This document shows, piece by piece, positions 3,441 to 62,165 of a stretch of DNA of 63,426 bases (its first letter is position 1; each line of letters begins with the position of its first letter). The DNA is from Patescibacteria group bacterium UBA4473. GTDB taxonomy: Bacteria; Patescibacteriota; Gracilibacteria; UBA4473. The stretch is taken from positions 1 through 63,426 of the forward strand of contig DGOF01000029.1 in assembly GCA_002389285.1 (NCBI GenBank), in the 5' to 3' direction. The translations under genes and the position numbers were made by a program. The notes under the pieces were generated by a model. It was not told where the DNA came from. It made no database searches and saw only the letters and a list, made by a program, of their open reading frames with translations.

Positions 3441-3788
3441 CTAGAGCAAAAGCTGGATTGTCTTGGTAATGATCGCTGGAGGATCTGGGCTGGAAAAAAC
3501 CAGCATCAAGGATTTTGGTGTAAAGATCGGTGCGGCGATGAAATCAGGAATCGTGTAGCTTGTTTGGAGAACAATCTCTGGGGAATCGCTTTCTAAAACA
3601 GTGGTCTCACTCCAGGCTTCTGCGGCTTCTAAGCAGGCGTCGCAGTTTGCTTCTTCTTGTTCGGGAGCTTGTTCCTGATGACAGGGAGGTAGTTCGGTCG
3701 CCTCAACGGTCATGCCTCCCATGAAGCTAAAGCAACTCAGGAGGAAGAGTTTGGAGAAGAGAAGGGAGAGCGAGGAGATTCGGTTCAT
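3441..3788 (-). CDS. Hypothetical secreted protein (signal peptide, Cys-containing acidic segment)
   Basis: 115-aa ORF with a hydrophobic N-terminus (LSLLFSKLFLLSCFSFMGG) followed by CHQEQAPEQEEANCDAC. No family recognised. It sits between the ncRNA array and the efflux operon. Confidence 0.5.
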   Translation of the reverse strand: MNRISSLSLLFSKLFLLSCFSFMGGMTVEATELPPCHQEQAPEQEEANCDACLEAAEAWSETTVLESDSPEIVLQTSYTIPDFIAAPIFTPKSLMLVFSSPDPPAIITKTIQLLL

Positions 3789-3829
3789 GGATACACGCGG
3801 ATTGTAGCAGGGAAGCGGATGTGCGTAAA

Positions 3830-4047
3830 GAGAGAGACCGCCTTTTTTAGGGGCGGTCTCGTCCTGTTTCGGTACGGGGCAGGCTCACAGGCGTATAGTC
3901 TGTGAGCATGTGGTTGGTCAGTGTGATTAACCGACGAAGGAGGTCGCACTGAACCGAACACGCTGTCCGTTACTTTTCCCCGATAATACTCGTTCCATCG
4001 GAAGAGTCCGGGAGAGATGAAGCTAAAAGCTTCGAAGCAAACAGGTT
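3830..4047 (-). ncRNA. Structured ncRNA, copy 1 (subfamily A), unknown family
   Basis: Minus-strand promoter: TTGACA (4081-4076), N16, TAAATT (4059-4054). Predicted 5' end ~4047. Hairpin 1 is GAAGCU/AGCUUC (4019-4033). Hairpin 2 is UUCC-GAU-GGAA (3989-4006). The closing helix pairs CCUGUUU (4045-4039) with AAACAGG (3869-3863). The terminal hairpin at 3834-3860 has a 9-bp stem but only a weak U-tract, so this is the least terminator-like of the four copies. Confidence 0.7.
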
Positions 4048-4097
4048 GATACTAATTTAGTATTTACTGCGTATTTGTCAAATCTTTTTAGGATTTA

Positions 4098-4320
4098 AAA
4101 CAAAGATAAGAGGGCCGCCTTTGTGGGGCGACCCAGACCTATTTCGGTTTATCTAATGTTAGTGAGGGTGATTCCTCGCTAACATATGTCCAGATACAGT
4201 GAGGACAGGCCCGGAGGGCCCACTGGAGCAGGATGAACTTTCTTGATTTTCCCCGATATACTCGTTCCATCGGAAGAGCCCGGGAGAAAGAAGCCAGAGG
4301 CTTCAAAAGCAAATAGGTTG
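4098..4320 (-). ncRNA. Structured ncRNA, copy 2 (subfamily A), unknown family
   Basis: Promoter: TTGACA (4354-4349), N16, TTAAAG (4332-4327). Hairpin 1 is GAAGCC/GGCUUC (4290-4304). Hairpin 2 is at 4261-4278. The closing helix pairs CCUAUUU (4317-4311) with AAAUAGG (4144-4138). The terminator is GGGUCGCC-loop-GGCGGCCC (4134-4112) followed by UCUUAUCUUUGUUUU. Confidence 0.75.
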
Positions 4321-4361
4321 ACGCTACTTTAACTGTTTTTGTCGATTGTGTCAATTTTTGT

Positions 4362-4589
4362 ACAAGGAAAAACGGCCGCTTTGTGGGCGGCCTGGGTTTG
4401 TTTCGTGTGCTATATGGATTACGGATCATGATTGAATGTAGATCCATTCGGACGAGGTCCGTCTCCTGACGAAGTCAGAATAGAGAACCGGGCCTTGTCC
4501 GAAGCAGCGGCTTATTTCTTCTCGGACTCATTCCATCGGAAGAGCCATGCGAGAAAGAGGGGTTCTGAAAGAACCAAGCAAACAAACTT
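4362..4589 (-). ncRNA. Structured ncRNA, copy 3 (subfamily B), unknown family
   Basis: Promoter: TTGACA (4623-4618), N16, TAACTT (4601-4596). Hairpin 1 is GGUUCU/AGAACC (4561-4575). Hairpin 2 is at 4527-4544. The closing helix pairs GUUUGUUU (4587-4580) with AAACAAAC (4403-4396). The terminator is GGCCGCC-CACAAA-GCGGCC followed by GUUUUUCC (4392-4365). Confidence 0.75.
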
Positions 4590-4635
4590 GTTTCTAAGTT
4601 ACTCATTTTTCACAATATGTCAATGCTTCTTGCTT

Positions 4636-4855
4636 CTTTAAAAAACAGGACCGCTTTGAGGGCGGCCCGGGTTTGTTTCGCGTGCTTTCTCAGTCAGGTT
4701 TTATGGTGAAAACCGGAGTGAGGATATAAATGGGAACCTTTAGACGAAGTCAGGTTCACATTTCATCAGCATCTATCTGATCTCTTCTCTGACTGATTTC
4801 ATCGAAATAGTCATGGGAGAAAGAGGGGTTCTAAAAGAACTCAGCAAACAAACTT
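4636..4855 (-). ncRNA. Structured ncRNA, copy 4 (subfamily B), unknown family
   Basis: Promoter: TTGACA (4889-4884), N16, TAAGTT (4867-4862). It begins 17 nt after the stop of the vWA gene. Hairpin 1 is GUUCU/AGAAC (4828-4840). Hairpin 2 is the variant UUUC-GAU-GAAA (4793-4810). The closing helix pairs GUUUGUUU (4853-4846) with AAACAAAC (4678-4671). The terminator is GGGCCGCC-CUCAAA-GCGGUCC followed by UGUUUUUU (4668-4638). Confidence 0.75.
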
Positions 4856-4905
4856 AAGCCTAACTTAGTTGTTATCTTAATTTTGTCAAGTCTTCTTCGT
4901 TTTGG

Positions 4906-6903
4906 CTATGATTTTGACGAGAAGGCGTCGATATTTTCTTCTAAAAACGTGATGGTTTTATCGACGGCCTCCCCTACGCGGTGGCTGGCAGCGGCGTGCA
5001 TACGGGTTCGGCAATGGGGACGAAAATGAGACTCATACATTTCAATCACGGCTTGTGCACAGGGGGCGACACCATTCACCATGAAATAAATCCCTAAGGG
5101 ATCTTCTTGGATTTGATTCAAAACGGTATCTTCGGGAAGTGTGTCATATCCATCACTGAGGATAGATATGAATTTTAAGGCATTGGGATCGTGTAATTTC
5201 ATTCGTGAGTATCCATATTTTAAGGATGCTTCACTATTGGTTCCTCCAGGATTTTGCATTTCGAGGATTATTTGGTAAAATCCTTGGACGAGCGTTTTGA
5301 GGGTGGGGGCGTCATCGAGGGGGACCACAAGTTTTATGCCACTGTGAAACAATATGACTTCTGTTTGAACCGGGCTTTCCATGCCGCGGGGAAGTTTGTA
5401 TCGTCCGGATTTGTTTCGAAGTTCTTCGGCAATATTGAGCGCGGATTGCATGAAAGCCGTGTAATATCCGAGGGTTTCATTCAGTTGGTCGCCCATACTT
5501 CCGGATACATCAATTATTTTTTGAATCTGGAGGATTTTGGGGGTGAGAAAGTTTCGTTGATTGACATATACGGGGGCATCAAATTCGCCCATCCGTCCTC
5601 GGGTCCAGGCTTCGGCTTCGCGGCCGGGTTCCACCATGGATCCGGATCGTTGTCTTCGAACGGGCATTTTTCGGTATTCTTGTTGAATAAAACGAGTGAA
5701 GACTTCGGTGAGACGTGTGATTTGCGGAGAAAATATGTCACAGGTTTGAAGATATTGGCGATAGATTTCGGGGGGTATTTCGAGTTGCTCGGCCATTTCT
5801 TGAATGTGAGAATCCAATATTTTTCCGCTCATTTTACCACTCCCATCAGCGTCTGTTCCCAGGAGATCATCGATTCTCTTGGCCGCTTCTTGAAGGTTTG
5901 CTTCGACGACCTGCTTTCCTTCTTTTGTTCCTGGTTTTACGGTTGTTGATTGTTGAGTCACCACTTCAATTTGTCGGTTGTGTTGTGCGATTTGTTCGAT
6001 GATTTCTTTGAGTTTGGCTCGCGGATCGTCTGCTTTGGAACATTGTTCATCGATATCCTCTTGAAGGAGTCGACCGAGGTCCTGCATGCCTTCAAAAAAG
6101 ACCATGCATTTTTCATGCACGGAGGAGGTGGTACTTCTGAGGGATCGGAAGTAATGTTCCATGGTTGGAACTTCGTTTACAACTTTCGGAGGAAGGGTGT
6201 TGGTCTCTGGCATTCCAAAAAAAGGTGCCGTGAGAAAGAGGTTTTGAAAGGCTATGTGATCCATGGCTCCTTCAAATTCGTTGTCTTTCCAGACAAATTC
6301 TTGGGTTTCTTTAAATTCCTGAGCACGTTTTTGTCCGGCCTCTCTTTCTTCCGGGCTGACACAACCCATTTCTTTTGAAAAGATCGTTCCTCGATTTAAA
6401 AGAAAACACTGTCGCAAAAGATCTTGGGTGGTGACATTTTCGGCATGAGGGGCGATGGTTTCAAGGATCACGTCCGCACAAGTATTAATGAACCCGCGCG
6501 CCATTTGTTCTTTGGTTTGTTGGGGAAGTTCTGCAGGAAGTTGGCTTATGGTTGCGGGAATCAGGGCTTCACATTGATCTTGAAATTGGAGCAGTTCTGG
6601 TAAATGGTGACCGAATTCATGCGCAAAACAGGCCATTTTTTCATCGATGGGAAGGGTGAAAATCGTGTAGGGATTGTAGAAAATGATCTGTTGTTTGATC
6701 AAGGTCGCATATCCAGGGTTGTCAGGCGTGGCTTCTGGGTCAGGTTGTAAAGGGAATCTCCTCGCATTGGGAATGAGTTGCTCGAGAATCTGTAAAAAGG
6801 CCTCCCCATTATCCCCATCTTCAGAAAAGGCTTCTGCAAGAGTGGTCGGAAGAGGACGTTCTATGTCCACTTGAGTCGGTAAGAGGTCTTCGTTTGGTGG
6901 CAT
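4906..6903 (-). CDS. HExxH metallopeptidase-like N-terminal domain fused to a C-terminal von Willebrand factor A (vWA) domain with an intact MIDAS motif
   Basis: 665 aa. CFAHEFGHHLPE carries the HExxH motif (codons at 6621-6607). The vWA domain has IIDVSGSMG (DxSxS at 5511-5497), then GGTNSEASL and ISILSDGYDT. The gene starts 11 nt after the AAA+ gene stop. The architecture resembles the metallopeptidase+VWA partners of MoxR-type ATPases, as far as I recall. Confidence 0.8.
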   Translation of the reverse strand: MPPNEDLLPTQVDIERPLPTTLAEAFSEDGDNGEAFLQILEQLIPNARRFPLQPDPEATPDNPGYATLIKQQIIFYNPYTIFTLPIDEKMACFAHEFGHHLPELLQFQDQCEALIPATISQLPAELPQQTKEQMARGFINTCADVILETIAPHAENVTTQDLLRQCFLLNRGTIFSKEMGCVSPEEREAGQKRAQEFKETQEFVWKDNEFEGAMDHIAFQNLFLTAPFFGMPETNTLPPKVVNEVPTMEHYFRSLRSTTSSVHEKCMVFFEGMQDLGRLLQEDIDEQCSKADDPRAKLKEIIEQIAQHNRQIEVVTQQSTTVKPGTKEGKQVVEANLQEAAKRIDDLLGTDADGSGKMSGKILDSHIQEMAEQLEIPPEIYRQYLQTCDIFSPQITRLTEVFTRFIQQEYRKMPVRRQRSGSMVEPGREAEAWTRGRMGEFDAPVYVNQRNFLTPKILQIQKIIDVSGSMGDQLNETLGYYTAFMQSALNIAEELRNKSGRYKLPRGMESPVQTEVILFHSGIKLVVPLDDAPTLKTLVQGFYQIILEMQNPGGTNSEASLKYGYSRMKLHDPNALKFISILSDGYDTLPEDTVLNQIQEDPLGIYFMVNGVAPCAQAVIEMYESHFRPHCRTRMHAAASHRVGEAVDKTITFLEENIDAFSSKS

Positions 6904-6914
6904 GAATATTTCTT

Positions 6915-9900
6915 TTAAGACCGGTAGGTTGGAAGCGTTGGAAGATCGACGGGAATTTTTCGCATCATGTGTTCCACGATGACCTGCATATTGCTTTCTT
7001 GGATCTCGGAGATCATTTGTATGGCTTCTATGTAGGGAAGGGTTATCTTCATAGGTTTATCGGGATGGATACCTCGTTGTGCCATGAAGGTTTTGACCTG
7101 TCCTGCAATTTCCATAAGACGGTCCAAAGGAATGACTTTGAGATCGTAGAGTTCTTTCGCTTCTTTGAAGATGGTGAGAATCGGAAGAAACTGTGATTCA
7201 AAGATCGTAAAGTCTTTCATGACGGCTTGTGCTCTTTTGGATATGGCTTTGATCGGAGGGTTGAAGGCGGCTTCTCTTCTTTTTTCAAAGTCTTCTTTCC
7301 AGTCGTCTTGGTGCTTCATAATGACCCCGGTGGGCTCGTCTGCGTCTTCTCTGGTAATGAGTTCTTTGAAATCAGGACATTGATGGATGAGGCTTATGAT
7401 TTCTGGGTACTTTCGGAGTGGACGCATATGGCTTTGAATAGCTTTTCGAATGGGCTCGGCTTCTTCTGGGGTTATAACAAAGAGCGCTTGCATATCGGTC
7501 CAGTGACGAAGGACCTGCTGGACCGTGTTTTTTCGAATTTTTGTTTTACTTCTGGTTTTCGCTGCTTTTGATTCGCTCCCGTTTTCCGTTTCCTTGATGT
7601 TTTGGGTCGCTTCGTCGAGTGTTTGGACGAGATATTCGAGGCTTGGGTTTTTAAAGGCTTTTTCGTCTTGAAAAGAATCGCGTGAGATGAATTTTTTCTC
7701 TACGCCAAGGGCAAAGAGAGAAGCGTTACGGAGGAACGTCACGGGATTATCTTTGGTGTTTTCGATTTGTGCTTTAAGAAATTCTGTGAGGGATTTGGAG
7801 GCTTTTTCCGAGAGTGTTCCAACGGAGAGTGAATCGTCTTTCGTTCCAAAGTTTGCTTGAAGGAGCTCGGTCCAATTTTCCGTAGCGATGAGTTCTTGTT
7901 GATACTCGTTTATGGATTTCATAACGAGCGGATTCAGTCCCATTTTTCCGAGTTCGGCCATGTGATCAACATGATGCGCGTACTTTTGGGCCTCTTCTCC
8001 ATGGACGGGACAGTGTTTGACGCCACAAACGGGACATCGGTGTTGATAGTTTTTTTTGCTCTCACTGTAGTCGTGCGGTTTGAAGGATACTTGATCGGCG
8101 CGTGCGGAATCGATGAGTTCGCTTAATCGAGCGGATCCAAGATTGGAAATCATGCCTTCAATTTCTTTTTTATAGCCGTTGAGGAATCCACTTCCGATGA
8201 GAAGAGGAATGATAGTTCGAAGACTGTCGGTATATCCGAGGGCGAAGGCATCTCGTACGTAGTGTGCCATAAGCGCTTCGTCGATATTACACGGATGATG
8301 ATTGGTTTGAGGATTGATCGATTTACAAATTTCAATCAAGACCCGATTTGAGAAGGGGAGAAATTCATTTCTTCCTCCGTATTCTCGTGTCAGTGTGGCT
8401 TTTAGTTTGGGGATCAGTGTTTGAACGAGGAAGTGCATTTGGTAGGCACTTTCATCGTCAATCGTTCCGGCGTTGTCAGTGAGTGCAAAATGTCCGGTCA
8501 TGGGGTCACAAAGATGAGCCCAGGCAAGGGATCGAGTCATTTCTTCTGGGGGGAGTCCTTGGAAATCAAGCGATCCTCCCATGGCTAATCGGCTGGCCAT
8601 GGCGGGATTGGCCGCAATAGAGGTTCCGTGTTCGGATCCGACATTTCCCGTAAAGGTGATACAAAACTTATCTCCGACGCGCATCCATTCAGAGGTGATG
8701 GTATTGAAAAACCATCCAATAGGATTTTTTTGAGTTTTTCCCTCTTCTTGTTTTCGTGTTTCAGGGCGCGGTCCGGCGGTTTCGTCATCGGCTGGAATAC
8801 AGTGCAATAAGGAGTGCAAAAAGGTCCAGTTATCGAGTTCCGGGAACTCGTTGATGATAATGGGCGTGTTCTTGATGAGTCCTTGAAGGATATTTCCGTA
8901 GGCAAATCCTCGTTGGGTGGTTTGGCTTTTAAGCACGGTGAGGAGATGGGAGGTCAGATCTTTTTGAGCGGATTTTTTGAGCAGGGCGCGGAGTTCTTCA
9001 ATACTGGCCCCTCCTTCGGAAAGAGTTTGTTCTGTGAGTTCGAAATGTTTTTCAAAAAAATCAGGATCTTGTGCTACGAGTATTTCTATTTGGGGTTTGT
9101 CTAGCTGATCGATCATGCTGGTATGGGCCATGGCTTGTTCCGCCATGGTTTGATCTCCGATCGTGGGTCGGGCCATAAGTGTAAAGGACGATTGTCCGGG
9201 ATCGATATCGATCGAAATGGGTTCGATACCATGCATTCGAAAATATTCTTGGAGGAGGCTGGTTTTTCCTTCTCCGGGAGGGCCGGTCAGCGTGGGGCCT
9301 ACGACGTGTCTTCGATCGGCTCCGTAAATACGGCCGTGAAGATTATTGAGATGTTGGATAACGGTTTCACTTTCATGAATCGATCGGTGGTTTTGTGCAT
9401 CGCCAATACATTTCATATGTTCTTGTCGTTGGTGGGCCATGCGTACGCTTTCATCCTGCCATACGGAATAGAGGCGTTCTTTGAGTCCGGTTTCTTGTTC
9501 GAGAAGTCCACCATCGGTTCGTTGAACTTGATTGAGAAATTGAGCCCCTCCTGGCATCGAACTTCCTATTTCTGTTTGCAAATATTGCTTGAGAATACGA
9601 CGTTGTTCCGCTTGGTCTTGTTGGTTTTGGAGGAGGTTTTCTTGGAGGGCATTGAAATTTGCAAGAGTCGCTGGACAGTATCCTGTCGTGAGATTCTCAT
9701 CGGGTTGATGTGCGAAGCTATAGATTCTTTCGGCTTGATGCGATATTTGATCGCCATAGGCCGTTACAGTGGTACGGATATCGTCTTCGATTCGTACTTG
9801 TGTTGCGTCCATGAGCTCTCTTTGACCGGCAAAGGCTGGCATCTCTCGGAGTGGGTTACTGGCCGCGTGCGTGAGCATCTGAGCGTTTGTCGTGAGCATT

Positions 9901-10112
9901 CTCACGATAAAATCAGCTTGATCATCTGGAAGTTCTTCGGGGACAGCGGGATTCGTGAGAAGTGTTTGGCTTACACGATCTGAAAAACAATCCGCCAGAT
10001 CATGGAGGTAGGCGAGCGGGTCTTTGTGGAGTTTTTCTTGTGCGGCTTGAAGACCTTCTGGCGTTTTGAAATCGATAGCTTTAGTCGTCATAAGATGAAT
10101 ATTATTTACCAT
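6915..10112 (-). CDS. Large AAA+ ATPase, MoxR/AAA_5 (CbbQ/NorQ-like) core, with long N- and C-terminal helical extensions and a CxxC..CxxH zinc knuckle
   Basis: 1065 aa. Walker A is GPTLTGPPGEGKTSLL (GPPGEGKT at 9284-9261). The Walker B-like segment GNILQGLIKNTPIIINEFPELD is at 8864-8847. ITFTGNVGSEHG...NPAMASRL looks like the sensor-1/Arg region. CPVCGVKHCPVHGEE forms the zinc knuckle. The gene starts 6 nt after the RT stop. Confidence 0.75.
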   Translation of the reverse strand: MVNNIHLMTTKAIDFKTPEGLQAAQEKLHKDPLAYLHDLADCFSDRVSQTLLTNPAVPEELPDDQADFIVRMLTTNAQMLTHAASNPLREMPAFAGQRELMDATQVRIEDDIRTTVTAYGDQISHQAERIYSFAHQPDENLTTGYCPATLANFNALQENLLQNQQDQAEQRRILKQYLQTEIGSSMPGGAQFLNQVQRTDGGLLEQETGLKERLYSVWQDESVRMAHQRQEHMKCIGDAQNHRSIHESETVIQHLNNLHGRIYGADRRHVVGPTLTGPPGEGKTSLLQEYFRMHGIEPISIDIDPGQSSFTLMARPTIGDQTMAEQAMAHTSMIDQLDKPQIEILVAQDPDFFEKHFELTEQTLSEGGASIEELRALLKKSAQKDLTSHLLTVLKSQTTQRGFAYGNILQGLIKNTPIIINEFPELDNWTFLHSLLHCIPADDETAGPRPETRKQEEGKTQKNPIGWFFNTITSEWMRVGDKFCITFTGNVGSEHGTSIAANPAMASRLAMGGSLDFQGLPPEEMTRSLAWAHLCDPMTGHFALTDNAGTIDDESAYQMHFLVQTLIPKLKATLTREYGGRNEFLPFSNRVLIEICKSINPQTNHHPCNIDEALMAHYVRDAFALGYTDSLRTIIPLLIGSGFLNGYKKEIEGMISNLGSARLSELIDSARADQVSFKPHDYSESKKNYQHRCPVCGVKHCPVHGEEAQKYAHHVDHMAELGKMGLNPLVMKSINEYQQELIATENWTELLQANFGTKDDSLSVGTLSEKASKSLTEFLKAQIENTKDNPVTFLRNASLFALGVEKKFISRDSFQDEKAFKNPSLEYLVQTLDEATQNIKETENGSESKAAKTRSKTKIRKNTVQQVLRHWTDMQALFVITPEEAEPIRKAIQSHMRPLRKYPEIISLIHQCPDFKELITREDADEPTGVIMKHQDDWKEDFEKRREAAFNPPIKAISKRAQAVMKDFTIFESQFLPILTIFKEAKELYDLKVIPLDRLMEIAGQVKTFMAQRGIHPDKPMKITLPYIEAIQMISEIQESNMQVIVEHMMRKIPVDLPTLPTYRS

Positions 10113-10118
10113 AAAAGA

Positions 10119-11906
10119 TTATTTTTTCTCCTTAAAACCAGGAAGATTGATGAAATTACTTTTTTTGTCTTTTGTATGTTTTTGTTTTTTGGGGACGGGA
10201 GCAAGGACTTTGGTGACTTCTTTTTCTGCATCCCAGAACAAATAACGCGTTCCACGGAGGATGGCATAAAGACTCGTGTCACCTCGTTCTTCCGCTTGAC
10301 CTTTTATGGCTTCACAAAGTCGTTCCCAGGCTTCTCGATTAAGTTTGAGGGTCAGGAGTGATTCTCCTTGGGCATCAGACTCATCTTCATTTTCTATAAC
10401 ATCTTCCTTGTTGAAAACCGTGAGTTCTACAAACGCAATGAGTTGGTAGAGGCTTGTTTCAAACAGGGCTCGTATTTCTTCTTCGGAAAGATCGTCATTA
10501 TCTTCGATCGATTCGGCGATGTTTGCGATTTGATCCGAGAGTTCAAATTCTACAAGAGTTTCATCTTTGTTAATGGTCTCTTCCATTTCGAGGAGAGAGG
10601 ATTTGGCTTCGTCGATTTTTGCGGTGAGTTCTTCGGGGGTGATATTTCGTTTTTCACAGAGCGTTGCTTGACGTTTTTGGGTGAAGACTTCTTTATCGGC
10701 ATCAACATAGTCGACCTGTTCTTGCATTTTCATTGCCTGGTTTGAAAACCATCCAGAAGCACTGGCGGGGAGGATGTCTCCGAATTTCTCCAAAAATTGT
10801 CGCCAGGCATGCGCCATGCGATCAGGAAGGACATAGAGGTCATCTTTGATCGTATCGCCTCCTATACGGGCAATGTGATGGGCGTGAGCGAATTTTCCAA
10901 GAATAGATGCGACTTCTTTGTGTTCTAAGAATTCGGCTTGTGTTGTCGGTAGAGCGTCTCCACGAAGATTATTATGATCGATGAGTGCATGCATTTGAGA
11001 AGCCCAGGTTTTGGCGCGGGAATGTGGAATACGAAATCGTAATTTTTTGTCGCTTTTTTTATCGGCGGGGAGGAGATCTACGCCCCAAATTCGATACTTT
11101 TTGTCGTTTTCTTTGTAGTGGGTTTTGTGCGGTGCGGCTTGAAATCCAAAAGATTTGAGGATACTTATGACGAGATGTCGGAATTCTTCGGGGATGTGTT
11201 CACTTCCCAAGATCATAATATCATCGGCATAGCGTCCGTAGGTGAGGTTTCCATCTATTCCCGCTTCTTTAGCTTTTTTTTGAATGATCCGATCAAAGGA
11301 GCTGCTGGCGACCATGTTCGAAAGGGTCGGGGAAGAGGGTGCTCCTTGGGGGAGGCGTTCTTCGAGACAGCAGAGCTCGGTGATGAGTTCGGCGAGTTCT
11401 TGGACGAGTTCGGTCGTGAGTTTGGGGCCTTTGTTCCAATTGTGAAGTATGCGATAGAGAAAATGATAGACTTCTTCTTGTACTTGATCTCGATTTACAC
11501 TGGGAAAAAAGTCGGTGATGTCGGTTTCAAAACAGGCATCCACGTTTTGATCTCGTTCTTCAAAGGTATCTATCATACTTCGAAGTCCGGTGTAGGCGGA
11601 TTGTCCGGCGCGAAATCCAAAAGAGGCCTCACTGAGGGTTGCTTTTCGAAGTAGGTCTTGGATGCGTCGTTGAACAAATTTAAGCGCCTCACTGGGGGCT
11701 TCAATGGTTCGTGTTTTTCCGGGTCCTTTGGGAATTTCAAATATTCGATAGTTTTTTCCTGAATCTCCCTGGTTGTTTTCAAGGGCTTGTACGACCAAAG
11801 GGGCGATGCTTGGAATACCATCGTTTCTAAACGTTGCTTTGTCGAGGGCCTCAAGGGCTTGTTGTGACGGAACACCAATGGATTGTTGTGATGATTTTCG
11901 AGGCAT
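10119..11906 (-). CDS. Stand-alone reverse transcriptase (retron/Abi/UG-like catalytic core) with a ~300-aa acidic helical C-terminal extension
   Basis: 595 aa. RT motifs: FEIPKGPGKTRTIEAP (RT1), FGFRAGQSAYTG (RT3), ETDITDFFPSVN (RT4/A), LPQGAPSSPTLSNMV (RT5/B), YGRYADDIMILG (RT-C; YADD at 11231-11220), HKTHYKEN...YRIWGVDL (RT6/7). I see no maturase, endonuclease or DGR-type motifs. Confidence 0.85.
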   Translation of the reverse strand: MPRKSSQQSIGVPSQQALEALDKATFRNDGIPSIAPLVVQALENNQGDSGKNYRIFEIPKGPGKTRTIEAPSEALKFVQRRIQDLLRKATLSEASFGFRAGQSAYTGLRSMIDTFEERDQNVDACFETDITDFFPSVNRDQVQEEVYHFLYRILHNWNKGPKLTTELVQELAELITELCCLEERLPQGAPSSPTLSNMVASSSFDRIIQKKAKEAGIDGNLTYGRYADDIMILGSEHIPEEFRHLVISILKSFGFQAAPHKTHYKENDKKYRIWGVDLLPADKKSDKKLRFRIPHSRAKTWASQMHALIDHNNLRGDALPTTQAEFLEHKEVASILGKFAHAHHIARIGGDTIKDDLYVLPDRMAHAWRQFLEKFGDILPASASGWFSNQAMKMQEQVDYVDADKEVFTQKRQATLCEKRNITPEELTAKIDEAKSSLLEMEETINKDETLVEFELSDQIANIAESIEDNDDLSEEEIRALFETSLYQLIAFVELTVFNKEDVIENEDESDAQGESLLTLKLNREAWERLCEAIKGQAEERGDTSLYAILRGTRYLFWDAEKEVTKVLAPVPKKQKHTKDKKSNFINLPGFKEKK

Positions 11907-11989
11907 TATTATTATCGGAAAAAATTAAAAATTACATCTTTTTTATACGTATTTACAAAAAAGTCAAGAGATTCTTAAGAATTAAAATA

Positions 11990-12916
11990 TTATTGCTTTG
12001 CCTTGGCACGTTTTTCTCGGAGATAGCGTGCTGATTTTATGGGTCCTGCGGAAAAAATTCCCTTGATAGATTGTGAGAGGCTGGGGCCTCGGACGATATC
12101 GGCGATGGCTGTTCGAATGTTTTCGGCGAGCTCGTGAGGGTTTTCGGCAAAGTCCGTTTTGTCGCGAAGATTTTCTGGGAGTTGGCTGTGCAGTTCGGAT
12201 TGGGTCCGTGGGGAGGACTCTCGTTCGAAATAGTCTTGTCCTTCTCCTATTTTTAGAATATTCCATCGCTGTTCTATGGCGGATTTATAGAGTTCGGCAA
12301 AGGCGTCTTGGTTCTTGGTGACAATGTTTTCTATTTTTCTTGGATTTTCTGCGTGTTTCATGCGCGTATCTCCTGTATAAGAAAGTCCGGCAATGGTTAT
12401 AAACAATTCTTCGGGAGTGAAGTTCCCGGGTAAGAGGAGCAGGGCGGTTGAGAGCGCGTGTTTGAGATTTTTCTGAATCGCCCAGCGAACATCCGTGGTG
12501 GTTTGTAAGATTTCAACCGGTTTTTGGAGGCGTCCGGCACAATAGAGTGTGGTCCATTCGAGAAGATCTTTTTTAAGGTCTTCGATAGAAATGACGCCGT
12601 ATTTTATTTCGCGATATCCGAGGTCGTCTTCAAAATCCACATAGGGGTGATAGTAGATCCCTGCGCCTTGATCTTGAAGTATTTTTAGGACTTTGTGTCC
12701 GAGCATGCGCGCGAGGAGCGAGTAATCTTGAGGATTTTGTGCGAGTTGTAGGTTATGCCAGTCTTTTGTTTCCAGAACTCCCCAAATGAAATCAATCATC
12801 GGTTGGTCATTTTTGTCATAGCCTTCTTGTTCAAAGGCTCCTGATCCGTAGACCATGGCAAAGTCTGGTTTGTATTTCTCTAAAATCGCTTCTGGGTCGA
12901 AACTTAATTTTTTCAT
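11990..12916 (-). CDS. Tam41/Mmp37-family protein (mitochondrial-type phosphatidate cytidylyltransferase homologue)
   Basis: 308 aa. MVYGSGAFEQEGY, PMIDFIWGV, WHNLQLAQNPQDYS, GAGIYYHPYV, IKYGVISIEDL and TLYCAGRLQKPV match the conserved blocks of Tam41/Mmp37 as I recall them. Confidence 0.65.
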   Translation of the reverse strand: MKKLSFDPEAILEKYKPDFAMVYGSGAFEQEGYDKNDQPMIDFIWGVLETKDWHNLQLAQNPQDYSLLARMLGHKVLKILQDQGAGIYYHPYVDFEDDLGYREIKYGVISIEDLKKDLLEWTTLYCAGRLQKPVEILQTTTDVRWAIQKNLKHALSTALLLLPGNFTPEELFITIAGLSYTGDTRMKHAENPRKIENIVTKNQDAFAELYKSAIEQRWNILKIGEGQDYFERESSPRTQSELHSQLPENLRDKTDFAENPHELAENIRTAIADIVRGPSLSQSIKGIFSAGPIKSARYLREKRAKAKQ

Positions 12917-60752: not shown

Positions 60753-62165
60753 TTATCGGACTCCCAAATCTTTTCGTAAGGCATGGATGTGTCGTGCGGT
60801 GGGGGAGTCTTTTCTTTTGAGACCTCCGATTTTTCGGATGCCGTGCATGATAGTGGTGTGGTTTTTGCCGCCAAAATCCTTTCCAATAGCTTCAAAGCTC
60901 ATGTCGAGGAGGTCTTTGCAGAGAATCCAGGCAATCTGACGAGGATAGACTATTTCTTTTTTTCGAGATTTTCCAAGTAGATCTGTGGCCGGGATTTGAA
61001 AATAGTCACTGACCGCAGTTATGACGTCATCGGTTGATCGTGCAAATCCTTTTTTACTGTTTTCAACGGTGAGAATGTCTTCGGATGGATTAAGTTTTCT
61101 GAAAATTTTACTGACAGACTGAACCGTAGGAGAAATGTTGGTCAGTTCAATTTCCGCAGAAATTTGGGTGAGTACGTTTTCCATTTCCCGAAGATTGTGG
61201 CGTGTGTTGGAGGCGATGAATTCTTGAATGTCCTGGGGAAGGATCAGGCTTCGGTCTTTCATTTTTTCTTGGACAATAGCCATGCGAGTTTCAAATCCTG
61301 GCATTTTGACATCTACCGAGAGTCCCCATCCCATACGGGAACGAAGTCGATCTGATATTCCAGCCAGTTCAGAAGGCGGTCTGTCAGCAGAAAAAATAAT
61401 CTGTTTTTGAAACTCGTACAGATCATTAAAGGTGTTAAAGAGTTCTTCCTGGGTTTTTTCTTTCCCTTCAAAAAATTGCACGTCATCGATAATAAGGGCG
61501 TCTACGCGTCGGTATTTTTTTCGAAATTCATTATTTTTTCGTTCACGAATGGCTTTTATGATTTCATTCATGAATCGTTCTGATGTGGTGTAGACGATGA
61601 CGGCGTCAGGATTCTTTTTTAGAATTTCATTCGCTGTTCCCTGAAGGAGGTGTGTTTTTCCCAATCCGACCCCTCCATAAATAAAGATTGGATTGTATTT
61701 CTTGATTTGTCCTTTTTTTGAGCTTTCGGCAACAGCCATACAGGCCGCATGCGCCATTCTGTTCTCGTCTCCTACGATATAATTCCCAAGGGTGAACTTG
61801 GGGTGGATAATACGTGATTCAACGCCCTCGGCGAGTTTTACGTCTGGACGGTTGGGAAGTTTCCGTGGGGCTTTGGGTTTTTCAAAGATTGGTGCGTGAA
61901 CGGGGGCTTTGTCGGCCAGGGATAAATCGACTTTGAAGTATACTTTTTGAATTTCTGGGAGAACGGCTTTGAGGTTGGTGAGAATCATCCCGTTGTATTT
62001 GTTCTCCAGCCAATTCTTATTCATCTCGGTTGGACAGGCGATGAGGACGGCGCCCCCTGATATTTCCGCAATATGCACCTTTTTAAACCAGGTATGGAAT
62101 TCCATTCGAGAAAGTTTCTCAGAGAGACGGGTAAGAACGGCGTTCCAGGCTTGGGAATTGTCCAT
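60753..62165 (-). CDS. dnaA: Chromosomal replication initiator protein DnaA
   Basis: 470 aa with NPIFIYGGVGLGKTHLLQ (Walker A), ALIIDDVQFF (Walker B) and C-terminal domain IV (IVYPRQIAWILCKDL...GGKNHTTIMHG). Confidence 0.95.
   Translation of the reverse strand: MDNSQAWNAVLTRLSEKLSRMEFHTWFKKVHIAEISGGAVLIACPTEMNKNWLENKYNGMILTNLKAVLPEIQKVYFKVDLSLADKAPVHAPIFEKPKAPRKLPNRPDVKLAEGVESRIIHPKFTLGNYIVGDENRMAHAACMAVAESSKKGQIKKYNPIFIYGGVGLGKTHLLQGTANEILKKNPDAVIVYTTSERFMNEIIKAIRERKNNEFRKKYRRVDALIIDDVQFFEGKEKTQEELFNTFNDLYEFQKQIIFSADRPPSELAGISDRLRSRMGWGLSVDVKMPGFETRMAIVQEKMKDRSLILPQDIQEFIASNTRHNLREMENVLTQISAEIELTNISPTVQSVSKIFRKLNPSEDILTVENSKKGFARSTDDVITAVSDYFQIPATDLLGKSRKKEIVYPRQIAWILCKDLLDMSFEAIGKDFGGKNHTTIMHGIRKIGGLKRKDSPTARHIHALRKDLGVR

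Follow-up and report, generated by a model that had tools for sequence, protein, structure and literature searches.

A probable retron-like system with a tandem RNA array and MoxR/vWA-style partner genes in candidate-phyla bacteria

We analysed a 63,426-nucleotide stretch of DNA (the window) and found a locus that probably encodes a divergent, as yet unclassified type of retron-like system. It combines a reverse transcriptase (RT), a P-loop ATPase, a protein with HExxH and von Willebrand A (vWA) motifs, and an array of structured RNA genes. A preliminary description had proposed that these four parts form one module, and comparison with related loci showed that module to be conserved: the RT-ATPase-vWA triad was syntenic in all related loci long enough to judge (about 14), and RNA units always lay alongside. 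The full triad was present in L001, L002, L003, L007, L010, L013, L014, L015 and L036; in L006, L009 and L011 the RT and ATPase were present and the contig ended early. ATPase homologues retrieved by word search adjoined an RT in every case (4/4). Against the linkage, one distant relative of the RT (L016) has neither partner genes nor a recognisable RNA beside it. Tandem RNA units, on the same strand as the genes, occurred in every locus with readable flanks, and a multi-copy array (1-10 copies) is a conserved trait of the family. Its position varies: the array lies downstream of the triad in the window alone, and upstream of the RT, abutting it, in the other loci. The carriers were about a dozen uncultured candidate-phyla bacteria, mostly Peregrinibacteria/Peribacteria MAGs. 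These hosts are small-genome episymbionts.

All three protein genes lie on the minus strand (Table 1), with gaps of 6 nt between the RT and ATPase genes and 11 nt between the ATPase and vWA genes. On re-check of the sequence, the open reading frames, their lengths and both gaps proved exactly as first described, and every motif quoted at the outset was found in its place: IPKGPGKTRTI, FGFRAGQS, DITDFFPS and LPQGAPSSPTLSN in the RT, together with YADD (11231-11220), GPPGEGKT (9284-9261), HEFGH (6621-6607) and DVSGS (5511-5497). The RNA array does begin just past the stop codon of the vWA gene, but the spacing from that stop codon to the first -35 box is 16 nt rather than 17. Four units of ~250 nt follow on the same strand, with a separate promoter and terminator for every one, an arrangement borne out by a box and terminator scan and by folding z-scores. 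Successive TTGACA boxes are spaced 266-273 nt apart, and each is followed by 16-17 nt, a TAAxTT -10-like box, the RNA, and a hairpin rich in GC that leads into a T-run. The scan returned six promoter-like sites against 2.2 expected and nine terminator-like sites against 2.9 expected, and all four units folded much more stably than dinucleotide shuffles (z = -3.4 to -5.1). From a1 to a2, the two strands of the terminal helix, the window RNAs measure about 182-192 nt.

Table 1. Genes, ATPase motifs and RNA units of the locus (window coordinates unless given as residues)
Feature	Position	Strand	Size	Details
Retron-like reverse transcriptase (RT)	10119..11906	-	595 aa	
P-loop ATPase, AAA_5-type (MoxR/NorQ-class) core	6915..10112	-	1065 aa	assigned indirectly
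HExxH + vWA protein	4906..6903	-	665 aa	
Walker A GPPGEGKT	ATPase aa 277			invariant in alignment A3
Walker-B-like IINEFPE	ATPase aa 418-424			invariant in alignment A3
Sensor-1-like TGN	ATPase aa 488			invariant in alignment A3
Conserved SR	ATPase aa 507-508			alignment A3
CxxCx4CPxHG zinc knuckle	ATPase aa 693-705			alignment A3
ncRNA unit 1	4638..4889	-		-35 TTGACA 4889-4884; a1 GUUUGUUU-GCU from 4853; GCG-AAACAAAC (a2) to 4671; terminator hairpin 4668-4648 + T-run; z = -5.1
ncRNA unit 2	4364..4623	-		-35 4623-4618; a1 from 4587; a2 to 4396; terminator 4392-4374; z = -4.4
ncRNA unit 3	4102..4354	-		-35 4354-4349; a1 ACCUAUUU-GCU from 4318; CCG-AAAUAGGU (a2) to 4137; terminator 4134-4112; z = -4.2
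ncRNA unit 4	3826..4081	-		-35 4081-4076; a1 ACCUGUUU-GCU from 4046; CCG-AAACAGGA (a2) to 3862; terminator hairpin 3860-3834; z = -3.4

The RT domain, which includes YADD, spans approximately residues 50-290 of the protein and is followed by a C-terminal extension of ~300 aa, conserved in the family and ending in LPGFK (family alignment A2). Pfam identified RVT_1 (E = 1e-22). It had been implied earlier that this RT lies outside the retrons; this was not supported, as searches of PADLOC, NCBIfam and PDB all had retron RTs as their top matches. The top PADLOC models were retron RT III-A, IX and II-A (E 1e-41 to 1e-35), and retron models outscored those of group II introns, Cas-RTs and DRTs well. 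The best NCBIfam family was retron_St85_RT (134 bits, under its cut-off of 235), ahead of group II (81 bits), Drt2 (34) and Drt3a (31), every RT family score falling below its curated cut-off. Searching PDB with the family profile placed Ec86 on top (9e-26), then Kva2 and Ec67, and the matches from single sequence and profile together (Ec86, Ec67, Kva2, Ec83 and Ec78) were all retron RTs. Judged from search scores, all under curated cut-offs, the RT is a member of the retron/retron-like sequence clade. Two retron signatures were compared with the family. Region Y is a VTG triplet in RT7 with G most conserved (Mestre 2020, PMC7736814); the equivalent triplet here is IWG, in which G is retained and T is replaced by W, and W274, G275 and V276 are near-invariant. 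Region X is NAXXH, between RT2 and RT3, with H most conserved (Mestre 2020, PMC7736814). It is absent from the RT family, where the aligned segment reads SAYxGLRxM, with no His, in all members; we therefore call the system retron-like and give it no retron type.

The ATPase is highly divergent (its Walker B has N-E, and 130 aa are inserted), and its motif conservation was read from an alignment of 11 homologues (A3; Table 1). The earlier label "MoxR-like" stood in part: distant relatives reach the AAA_5 threshold, but the window protein has no significant Pfam match, giving weak sub-threshold AAA matches. In an exhaustive profile search, nine of the ten shorter relatives scanned passed the AAA_5 gathering score of Pfam, so that the window protein would be assigned to AAA_5 indirectly, by transitive homology through these distant relatives. 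PADLOC and NCBIfam families gave no match to the ATPase, its AlphaFold model was poor, and a Foldseek search with that model was uninformative. The partner protein has an N-terminal helical domain in which HExGHH (aa 95-100) and a more distal Glu (aa 148) are invariant, a pattern as in zincin-like peptidases, and a C-terminal vWA domain whose MIDAS is complete and invariant (D465xS467xS469, T555, D584; alignment A4, 9 homologues). Pfam VWA_2 or VWA matched eight of the nine homologues, every one below threshold. The L036 orthologue (29% identity, E = 5e-88) scored above the Pfam gathering scores for both VWA (34.8 bits) and VWA_2 (36.1 bits), and the protein's profile matched an integrin I-domain in PDB (E = 0.008). 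This protein gave noise-level matches alone in PADLOC and no family match in NCBIfam.

Across the family, the RNAs are about 180-270 nt long, predicted to be independently transcribed, and on the same strand as the operon. All 35 units from 11 loci share the layout a1-GCU ... (A/C/G)CG-a2, and two invariant opposing G residues flank the a1/a2 helix in every unit. Mestre 2020 (PMC7736814) counts a1/a2 inverted repeats, with two G residues opposed at the inner end of the helix, among the hallmarks of the contiguous retron ncRNA. The Ec86 ncRNA has the matching layout a1-GCG ... ACG-a2; 48 E. coli genomes contain its sequence at 100% identity, beside a retron gene. Pairing in the a1/a2 helix reached 93% over the 35 units, a value inflated because a2 sites were picked using complementarity of the inner 6 bp, against at most 55% with a sliding partner. 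Doubly changed cells numbered 60 versus 21 +/- 5 in shuffles, and in the window the a1/a2 of unit 3 differs from that of units 1 and 2 by compensatory change. L036 had been left out when the pattern was derived and so provided an unbiased test: upstream of all five of its ACGAA anchors, at a distance of 245-257 nt, lay a 7-mer of perfect complementarity with GCT after it. A conserved inner hairpin showed compensatory change at 12/12 pairs. A covariance model of this hairpin, built from seven other loci, misses the four units of the window (best E about 4), and their homology to the other RNAs is therefore argued from common architecture. The folding z-score over the 35 units had a median of -5.0, with 34/35 under -2.

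Each unit divides into a conserved, msr-like 5' scaffold and a divergent, hairpin-rich, msd-like 3' part, identity within arrays being 64-98% in the former and merely 54-68% in the latter; units 1 and 2 of the window, for example, are alike in the 5' scaffold and differ in the 3' part. The variable part folds as two or three hairpins, whereas a typical retron has a single long msd hairpin. Short GCUNC repeats were seen at the hairpin tips of the L007 RNAs. A diversity-generating retroelement was considered and rejected: the variable parts match nothing elsewhere in the window or in related loci, and the RT is retron-like.

Retrons, above all types whose effectors contain an ATPase, such as type I-A Ec78/Ec83 (RT, msr/msd, ATPase and HNH), are close to the window system in the sequence neighbourhood of the RT, in the contiguous same-strand ncRNA with two opposing G residues and a terminal a1/a2 helix that covaries, and in a "tripartite" organisation of RT, ncRNA and effector with conserved accessory genes that include a P-loop ATPase. 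They differ in that the window partners are an AAA_5-type ATPase of ~1050 aa plus a protein combining vWA with HExxH, the ncRNA is a 1-10-unit tandem array with a promoter and terminator per unit and divergent 3' parts, the window array sits 3' of the effector genes, the RT carries the ~300-aa extension and lacks NAXXH, and the hosts belong to Peregrinibacteria-type candidate phyla. Table 1 of Mestre 2020 (PMC7736814) lists 13 retron types, none with an RNA array and none with an AAA+/MoxR, vWA or zincin partner, terms that are also absent from its text. The novelty claimed at first thus holds for the partner set, which is missing from these 13 types, PADLOC and NCBIfam 2026 (with literature covered to 2022), but not for the RT and RNAs, which are retron-like; given this RT and the retron msr/msd hallmarks, the locus is not a categorically new RT system.

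The effector side resembles the MoxR-vWA pairs with a third component described in conflict systems by Kaur, Burroughs, Iyer and Aravind 2020 (PMC7159879), which are proposed to answer invaders in a thresholded manner and whose vWA component now and then carries a fused peptidase domain. In both, an AAA+ ATPase, putatively MoxR-class in the window, adjoins a vWA/MIDAS protein, and a third component is conserved: a retron-like RT plus RNA array in the window, and VMAP, iSTAND, FtsH or a beta-propeller in the Kaur systems; the sole reverse transcriptases in a text search of that paper belonged to diversity-generating retroelements. Unlike those systems (PMC7159879), the window has a very divergent ATPase with no direct Pfam match and a peptidase-like domain N-terminal to the vWA. 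DRT2, DRT3 and DRT9 (UG/Abi RTs) share with the window a stand-alone RT, an adjoining structured ncRNA and a defence role, putative for the window, whereas the window RT is retron-like and not of the UG/Abi class, its RNA has a retron terminal helix, and the system adds a pair of large accessory proteins and an array of several RNA copies. "Multitrons", retron arrays engineered for multiplexed editing, are synthetic constructs in which one RT serves several different msr/msd RNAs in series; the window array, with a separate promoter and terminator per unit, would be a natural counterpart.

The RNAs might instead be scaffold or guide RNAs of an RNP machine like Ro60/Y RNA, the vWA protein and ATPase assembling on end-paired RNAs and the RT having a different role toward them or none, a reading we consider very improbable. 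Bacterial Ro60 has helical and vWA/MIDAS domains and is encoded beside at least one Y RNA whose 5' and 3' ends pair; the window likewise has a helical plus vWA/MIDAS protein beside end-paired RNAs, with the array directly 3' of its gene, and a K-turn-like protein-binding motif is kept in the RNA of seven loci. In all other loci, however, the array adjoins the RT and not the vWA gene, and invariant opposing G residues at a1/a2 are a retron-specific feature. Membership of the Ro60 (Rsr)/Y RNA group was rejected, as no TROVE domain was found in the nine vWA-protein homologues even at E <= 1 and Rfam gave no match to the window RNAs, Y RNA and YrlA included. We also see little chance that the RT performs templated synthesis as in DRT2, DRT9 or DRT3, where infection would trigger long repetitive or concatemeric cDNA, possibly a gene or homopolymer, and no stable branched msDNA. 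An RT that stands alone and has a structured ncRNA of its own, the weak Drt2 and Drt3a matches and the L007 tip repeats would fit such synthesis, but the retron model lies far ahead of DRT (134 vs 34 bits), priming from a 2'-OH is suggested by the a1/a2 end helix with its opposing G residues, and no shared sequence or coding pattern was found among the variable parts across units.

Rather unlikely, in our judgement, is that the association is real and its function is not defence, with the locus acting as a housekeeping or host-interaction module in which RT-made DNA-RNA hybrids regulate an ATPase/protease and the array serves dosage only. The window locus is chromosomal, among housekeeping genes with dnaA nearby, and neither mobile-element genes, a GC anomaly nor a defence-island context was found there; neighbours at the other loci are ordinary genes that change from locus to locus, and no family member was found on a viral contig. 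Against this stand the sporadic, rare distribution and 28-38% identity between members, typical of defence genes, and the 3'-part divergence inside arrays, which argues against pure dosage. To our knowledge, all characterised retrons that have an effector act in anti-phage defence.

As a divergent retron-like system, the locus would probably make several msDNAs from its diversified RNA array and couple them to a MoxR/vWA-style effector for phage defence, as far as sequence comparison can indicate. The RT would recognise the conserved scaffold of every unit, prime from the 2'-OH of the G after a1 and copy the variable part; with a shared scaffold recognised and a variable part copied, a single RT would yield a set of distinct msDNA-like RNA-DNA hybrids. 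At its MIDAS site the vWA domain may bind a peptide, belonging either to the RT-msDNA complex or to a target, which the ATPase would remodel, as in the logic of MoxR-vWA "ternary" conflict systems. A phage that alters, degrades or titrates one msDNA would free the zincin/ATPase effector and arrest the cell. The array may then offer a range of different sensors or decoys, or may simply provide higher dosage.

The locus comprises three minus-strand ORFs, encoding the RT, the ATPase and the vWA protein and lying 6 and 11 nt apart, followed by four ncRNA units (window 3826-11906; table). This anatomy of ORFs and repeat units bears out the three packed genes and four RNA units of the preliminary description, whose quoted protein motifs were each found in place. 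The array does lie close behind the last gene as described, with its first unit starting 16 nt past the stop codon rather than 17 nt. The neighbours named there, metal efflux and a lipid gene, correspond to HlyD-type efflux and Tam41-type CDP-DAG synthase genes flanking the locus. The window is chromosomal and encodes RsmH, PurC, ribonucleotide reductase and MurF; because dnaA lies inside it, the probable replication origin is no more than ~50 kb away from the locus. No GC anomaly was found at the locus and, as previously observed, no integrase, which ruled out a recent horizontal transfer island. The next gene upstream of the RT, likewise on the minus strand, encodes a mitochondrial-type Tam41/Mmp37 phosphatidate cytidylyltransferase, an unusual enzyme in a bacterium, and may share a transcript with the RT operon. 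Immediately 5' of the RT, no consensus promoter was found. At the other end, a 115-aa ORF separates the RNA array from the HlyD-type efflux gene, and a promoter-like site at window 3829-3801 overlaps the final terminator of the array.

The window units are direct repeats spaced 266-273 nt apart, each with a TTGACA -35 box, a TAAxTT box 16-17 nt on, an RNA of ~185 nt, and a GC-rich hairpin with a T-run. All four have a common 5' scaffold and a differing 3' half, pair by likeness (1 with 2, 3 with 4), and gave folding z-scores of -3.4 to -5.1 against dinucleotide shuffles. The RNAs matched no Rfam family, whether gathering scores or E <= 10 was applied. The tandem RNA array is a family trait: all related loci with readable flanks carry units of the same kind on the RT strand, there upstream of the RT, and an array downstream of the triad occurs in the window only. 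Units of one array share 64-98% identity in the 5' scaffold and 54-68% in the 3' part, the latter being close to the floor of the method. The 3' parts had no match elsewhere in the window or the loci, and a DGR was ruled out, there being no VR/TR match.

Features of the locus and of contigs bearing relatives (L handles)
Feature	Contig	Position	Strand	Details
RT gene	window	10119-11906	minus	595 aa, ORF
ATPase gene	window	6915-10112	minus	1065 aa, ORF
vWA protein gene	window	4906-6903	minus	665 aa, ORF
115-aa ORF	window	3441-3788	minus	signal-peptide-like N-terminus, several Cys/His; no family match
Tam41/Mmp37 gene	window	11990-12916	minus	Pfam E = 7e-92
dnaA	window	60753-62165	minus	
RNA array	L001			3 units
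RNA array	L002			at least 2 units
RNA array	L005			4 units
RNA array	L007	5050-8215		10 units
RNA array	L009			4 units
RNA array	L014	8890-9790		4 units (two putative dicistronic pairs)
RNA array	L015			at least 2 units
RNA array	L036			at least 5 units
RNA unit	L004			1 unit and a remnant
RNA unit	L006			1 unit
K-turn-like loop	L001	8955-8992		also in sister units
K-turn-like loop	L004	1864-1901		also in sister units
K-turn-like loop	L005	4206-4243		also in sister units
K-turn-like loop	L006	1176-1213		also in sister units
K-turn-like loop	L009	7226-7263		also in sister units
K-turn-like loop	L014	8976-9013		also in sister units
K-turn-like loop	L015	9469-9506		also in sister units
Solitary RT relative	L016	9971-11329		452 aa, 31% identity; Gracilibacteria, genetic code 25

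All 35 extracted units (35/35) have the 5' end a1-GCU and the 3' end (A/C/G)CG-a2 right before the terminator, a1 and a2 being complementary ends that form a terminal helix. This helix covaries both between and within arrays (for example UUUGUUU/AAACAAA, CCUAUUU/AAAUAGG, CUCAGUU/AACUGAG and AUCUGUU/AACAGAU), with 60 doubly changed cells vs 21 +/- 5 in shuffles. It is 93% paired, against <=55% in slid controls, a figure inflated because a2 sites were chosen by complementarity of the inner 6 bp; the chance of such an a2 match was estimated at ~4% per unit. L036 provides an unbiased test because it was anchored on ACGAA alone: all five of its ACGAA sites have a perfectly complementary 7-mer plus GCT 245-257 nt upstream. 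The units' layout matches that of the Ec86 retron ncRNA, which runs a1-GCG ... ACG-a2. The Ec86 sequence used for this comparison lies next to a retron gene in 48 E. coli genomes, which match it at 100% identity. An a1/a2 pair with "two opposing G residues" is named as the retron ncRNA signature (Mestre et al. 2020, PMC7736814).

The ncRNA also has a conserved inner hairpin, with compensatory change in 12/12 pairs. At seven loci this hairpin holds a K-turn-like internal loop, made up of a 3-nt bulge, a CCUC/GAGG helix and, beside the distal stem, a G-A that is invariant in both strands; the loop is missing in L002 and in units 3 and 4 of the window. Hairpin segments were delimited by hand, automated extraction being unreliable. 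A covariance model of the inner hairpin (R1) proved specific, with no match at E <= 1 in ~0.85 Mb of unrelated loci, but short in reach: it recovered its own seven loci and, weakly, 6 of the 10 L007 units, and was too narrow to find the window and L036 units.

In L007, the largest array, units are spaced 305-334 nt apart, every unit has an extra 5' leader hairpin ahead of a1, and the variable part shows GCUNC-like pentamer runs at a hairpin tip; GCUUCGCU strings in L036 and L005 resemble these pentamers. L014 (8890-9790) has its units in two back-to-back pairs with no promoter or terminator inside a pair, which suggests dicistronic RNA precursors that would need processing. Just upstream of the L015 array, an assembly gap (a run of N; 8640-8900) is flanked by a ~70-nt direct repeat, so that the unit count there is a lower bound.

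The RT matches Pfam RVT_1, and the best-scoring models in every library searched were retron RTs. These were retron models III-A, IX, II-A and VI in PADLOC (E 1e-41 to 1e-34), Ec86, Ec67, Kva2, Ec83 and Ec78 in the PDB (Ec86 profile E = 9e-26) and retron_St85_RT in NCBIfam (134 bits, vs 81 for group II intron RT, 34 for Drt2 and 31 for Drt3a, all under the curated cut-offs). A group II intron was ruled out, with no intron RNA present and the RT nearer to retrons. The system is closest to retrons and is presumed to work like one. It differs from them in having independent ncRNA units arrayed in tandem and in an RT that lacks NAXXH, a family-specific SAYxGLRxM standing at that place. Retron RT hallmarks include this NAXXH motif and a VTG triplet (Mestre et al. 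2020, PMC7736814); the VTG-equivalent triplet here is IWG, with the G retained. The C-terminal extension of ~300 aa is conserved and terminates in LPGFK. Word searches returned seven full-length RT homologues at 33-38% identity, beyond which scores fall sharply to generic retron RTs (E ~1e-18), and RT family scans of metagenome and viral contigs returned generic retron RTs only.

Additional family members came via ATPase homologues, a genome scan and an exhaustive ATPase profile search. The named carriers are MAGs labelled Candidatus Peribacteria, Peregrinibacteria and, once, Gracilibacteria. No family member was found in viral contigs, where a degenerate promoter plus GTTGCT pattern was unspecific, giving at least 120 single chance matches. 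By tblastn, nine loci (L001, L002, L003, L007, L010, L013, L014, L015 and L036) have RT, ATPase and vWA protein in that order on one strand, and the co-occurrence and synteny that the preliminary description proposed as a check thus held. RT and ATPase precede the contig end in L006, L009 and L011, and L004 and L005 have just ~0.5 kb of sequence beyond the RT. The solitary RT relative in L016 is C-terminally shorter, retains the family motifs and adjoins an ABC transporter; neither an ATPase nor a vWA partner accompanies it, and an RNA of the a1-GCU...ACG-a2 kind could not be recognised.

The ATPase had no significant match in Pfam, PADLOC, NCBIfam or the PDB, sequence and profile searches against the PDB giving only a P-loop match. 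Invariant in 11 homologues are GPPGxGKTS, hhhhNEFPE, TGN, an SR pair and a CxxCx4CPxHG zinc knuckle. The exhaustive profile search (1.84 billion representatives) yielded ~22 full-length clusters and ~45 shorter proteins matching the central region of the ATPase only. Nine of the ten shorter relatives scanned pass the Pfam AAA_5 gathering score, which by transitive homology points to an AAA_5-type (MoxR/NorQ-class) AAA+ domain as the predicted ATPase core. The MoxR-like assignment proposed at the outset is supported indirectly, through these relatives, but not by a direct Pfam match or structure prediction. Structure prediction and Foldseek, suggested for all three proteins, were unproductive for the two partners: the ATPase model (pLDDT 54, core <50) was unusable and did not confirm the AAA_5 fold, the vWA-protein model, folded from a single sequence, was likewise unusable (pLDDT 36), and Foldseek against the PDB gave no match at E <= 0.001. 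Shorter AAA_5 relatives also exist without an RT, as in L038, which suggests a wider ancestry for the ATPase module; the full-length ATPase adjoins an RT in all loci examined. In L038 (1-12306) the relative shares its operon with four uncharacterised proteins of ~580-600 aa that are paralogues of one another, and a further relative, the Altiarchaeota MAG protein P0152, carries a rhodanese domain at its C-terminus.

Homologues of the vWA protein were drawn from syntenic loci, a word-based search having given zero matches. HExGHH, a Glu 48 residues on and a complete MIDAS (DxSxS, T, D) are invariant in nine of them, confirming the HExxH and MIDAS motifs noticed earlier. Pfam vWA matches were sub-threshold in 8/9 members, and the L036 orthologue (E = 5e-88) exceeds the VWA and VWA_2 thresholds.

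From the anatomy, synteny and RNA structure demonstrated here, we infer a mechanism in which the RT would recognise the common scaffold of the units, prime from the G after a1 and copy the variable 3' part of each unit, yielding several distinct msDNA-like products. In MoxR-vWA ternary conflict systems, vWA captures a third-component peptide in a complex that the ATPase remodels (Kaur et al. 2020, PMC7159879); the vWA/MIDAS protein and AAA_5 ATPase may act likewise, execution probably falling to the zincin-like domain. If the system behaves like characterised retrons, phage disturbance of the msDNA would release the effector. The array could widen sensing or raise dosage, and broader sensing is favoured because the 3' parts diverge.

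We raise, as a rather unlikely possibility, that the array is a natural, evolving library of distinct msDNA-type sensors or decoys made by one RT or, alternatively, a set of non-template RNAs in a new RNP machine. In a library, the divergent 3' part of every unit would sense, or act as a decoy for, a phage factor of its own, with the MoxR/vWA-zincin machine as readout, and the locus would be the retron counterpart of multi-spacer immune loci. With non-template RNAs, the RT, ATPase, vWA protein and RNAs would together form a ribonucleoprotein machine of a new kind. Among rival explanations, the RNAs could be RNP scaffolds like those of Ro60 and Y RNA, against which stands the finding of no TROVE domain in the vWA-protein homologues; the RT could carry out DRT-type templated synthesis; or the system could have a non-defence role.

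To our knowledge, all classified retrons have one RT with one ncRNA gene, and no retron found in nature carries independent ncRNA units in tandem. The system fits none of the 13 retron types, because an AAA+/vWA/zincin partner is listed in none (Mestre et al. 2020, PMC7736814), as the preliminary description had supposed, and the partner proteins are not in PADLOC 2023 or NCBIfam 2026. If a single RT works with as many as ten diversified ncRNAs, each transcribed separately, the one-RT/one-ncRNA picture would change, and nature would have supplied a ready-made model for multiplexed retron editing, in which one RT handles many donors. The locus is compact (~8 kb), making synthesis for heterologous tests feasible. 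The AAA+/vWA/zincin module would join retron biology, tying retrons to MoxR-vWA conflict systems. The defence repertoire of candidate-phyla (Peregrinibacteria-type) bacteria is poorly known, and retron-like systems would extend to them.
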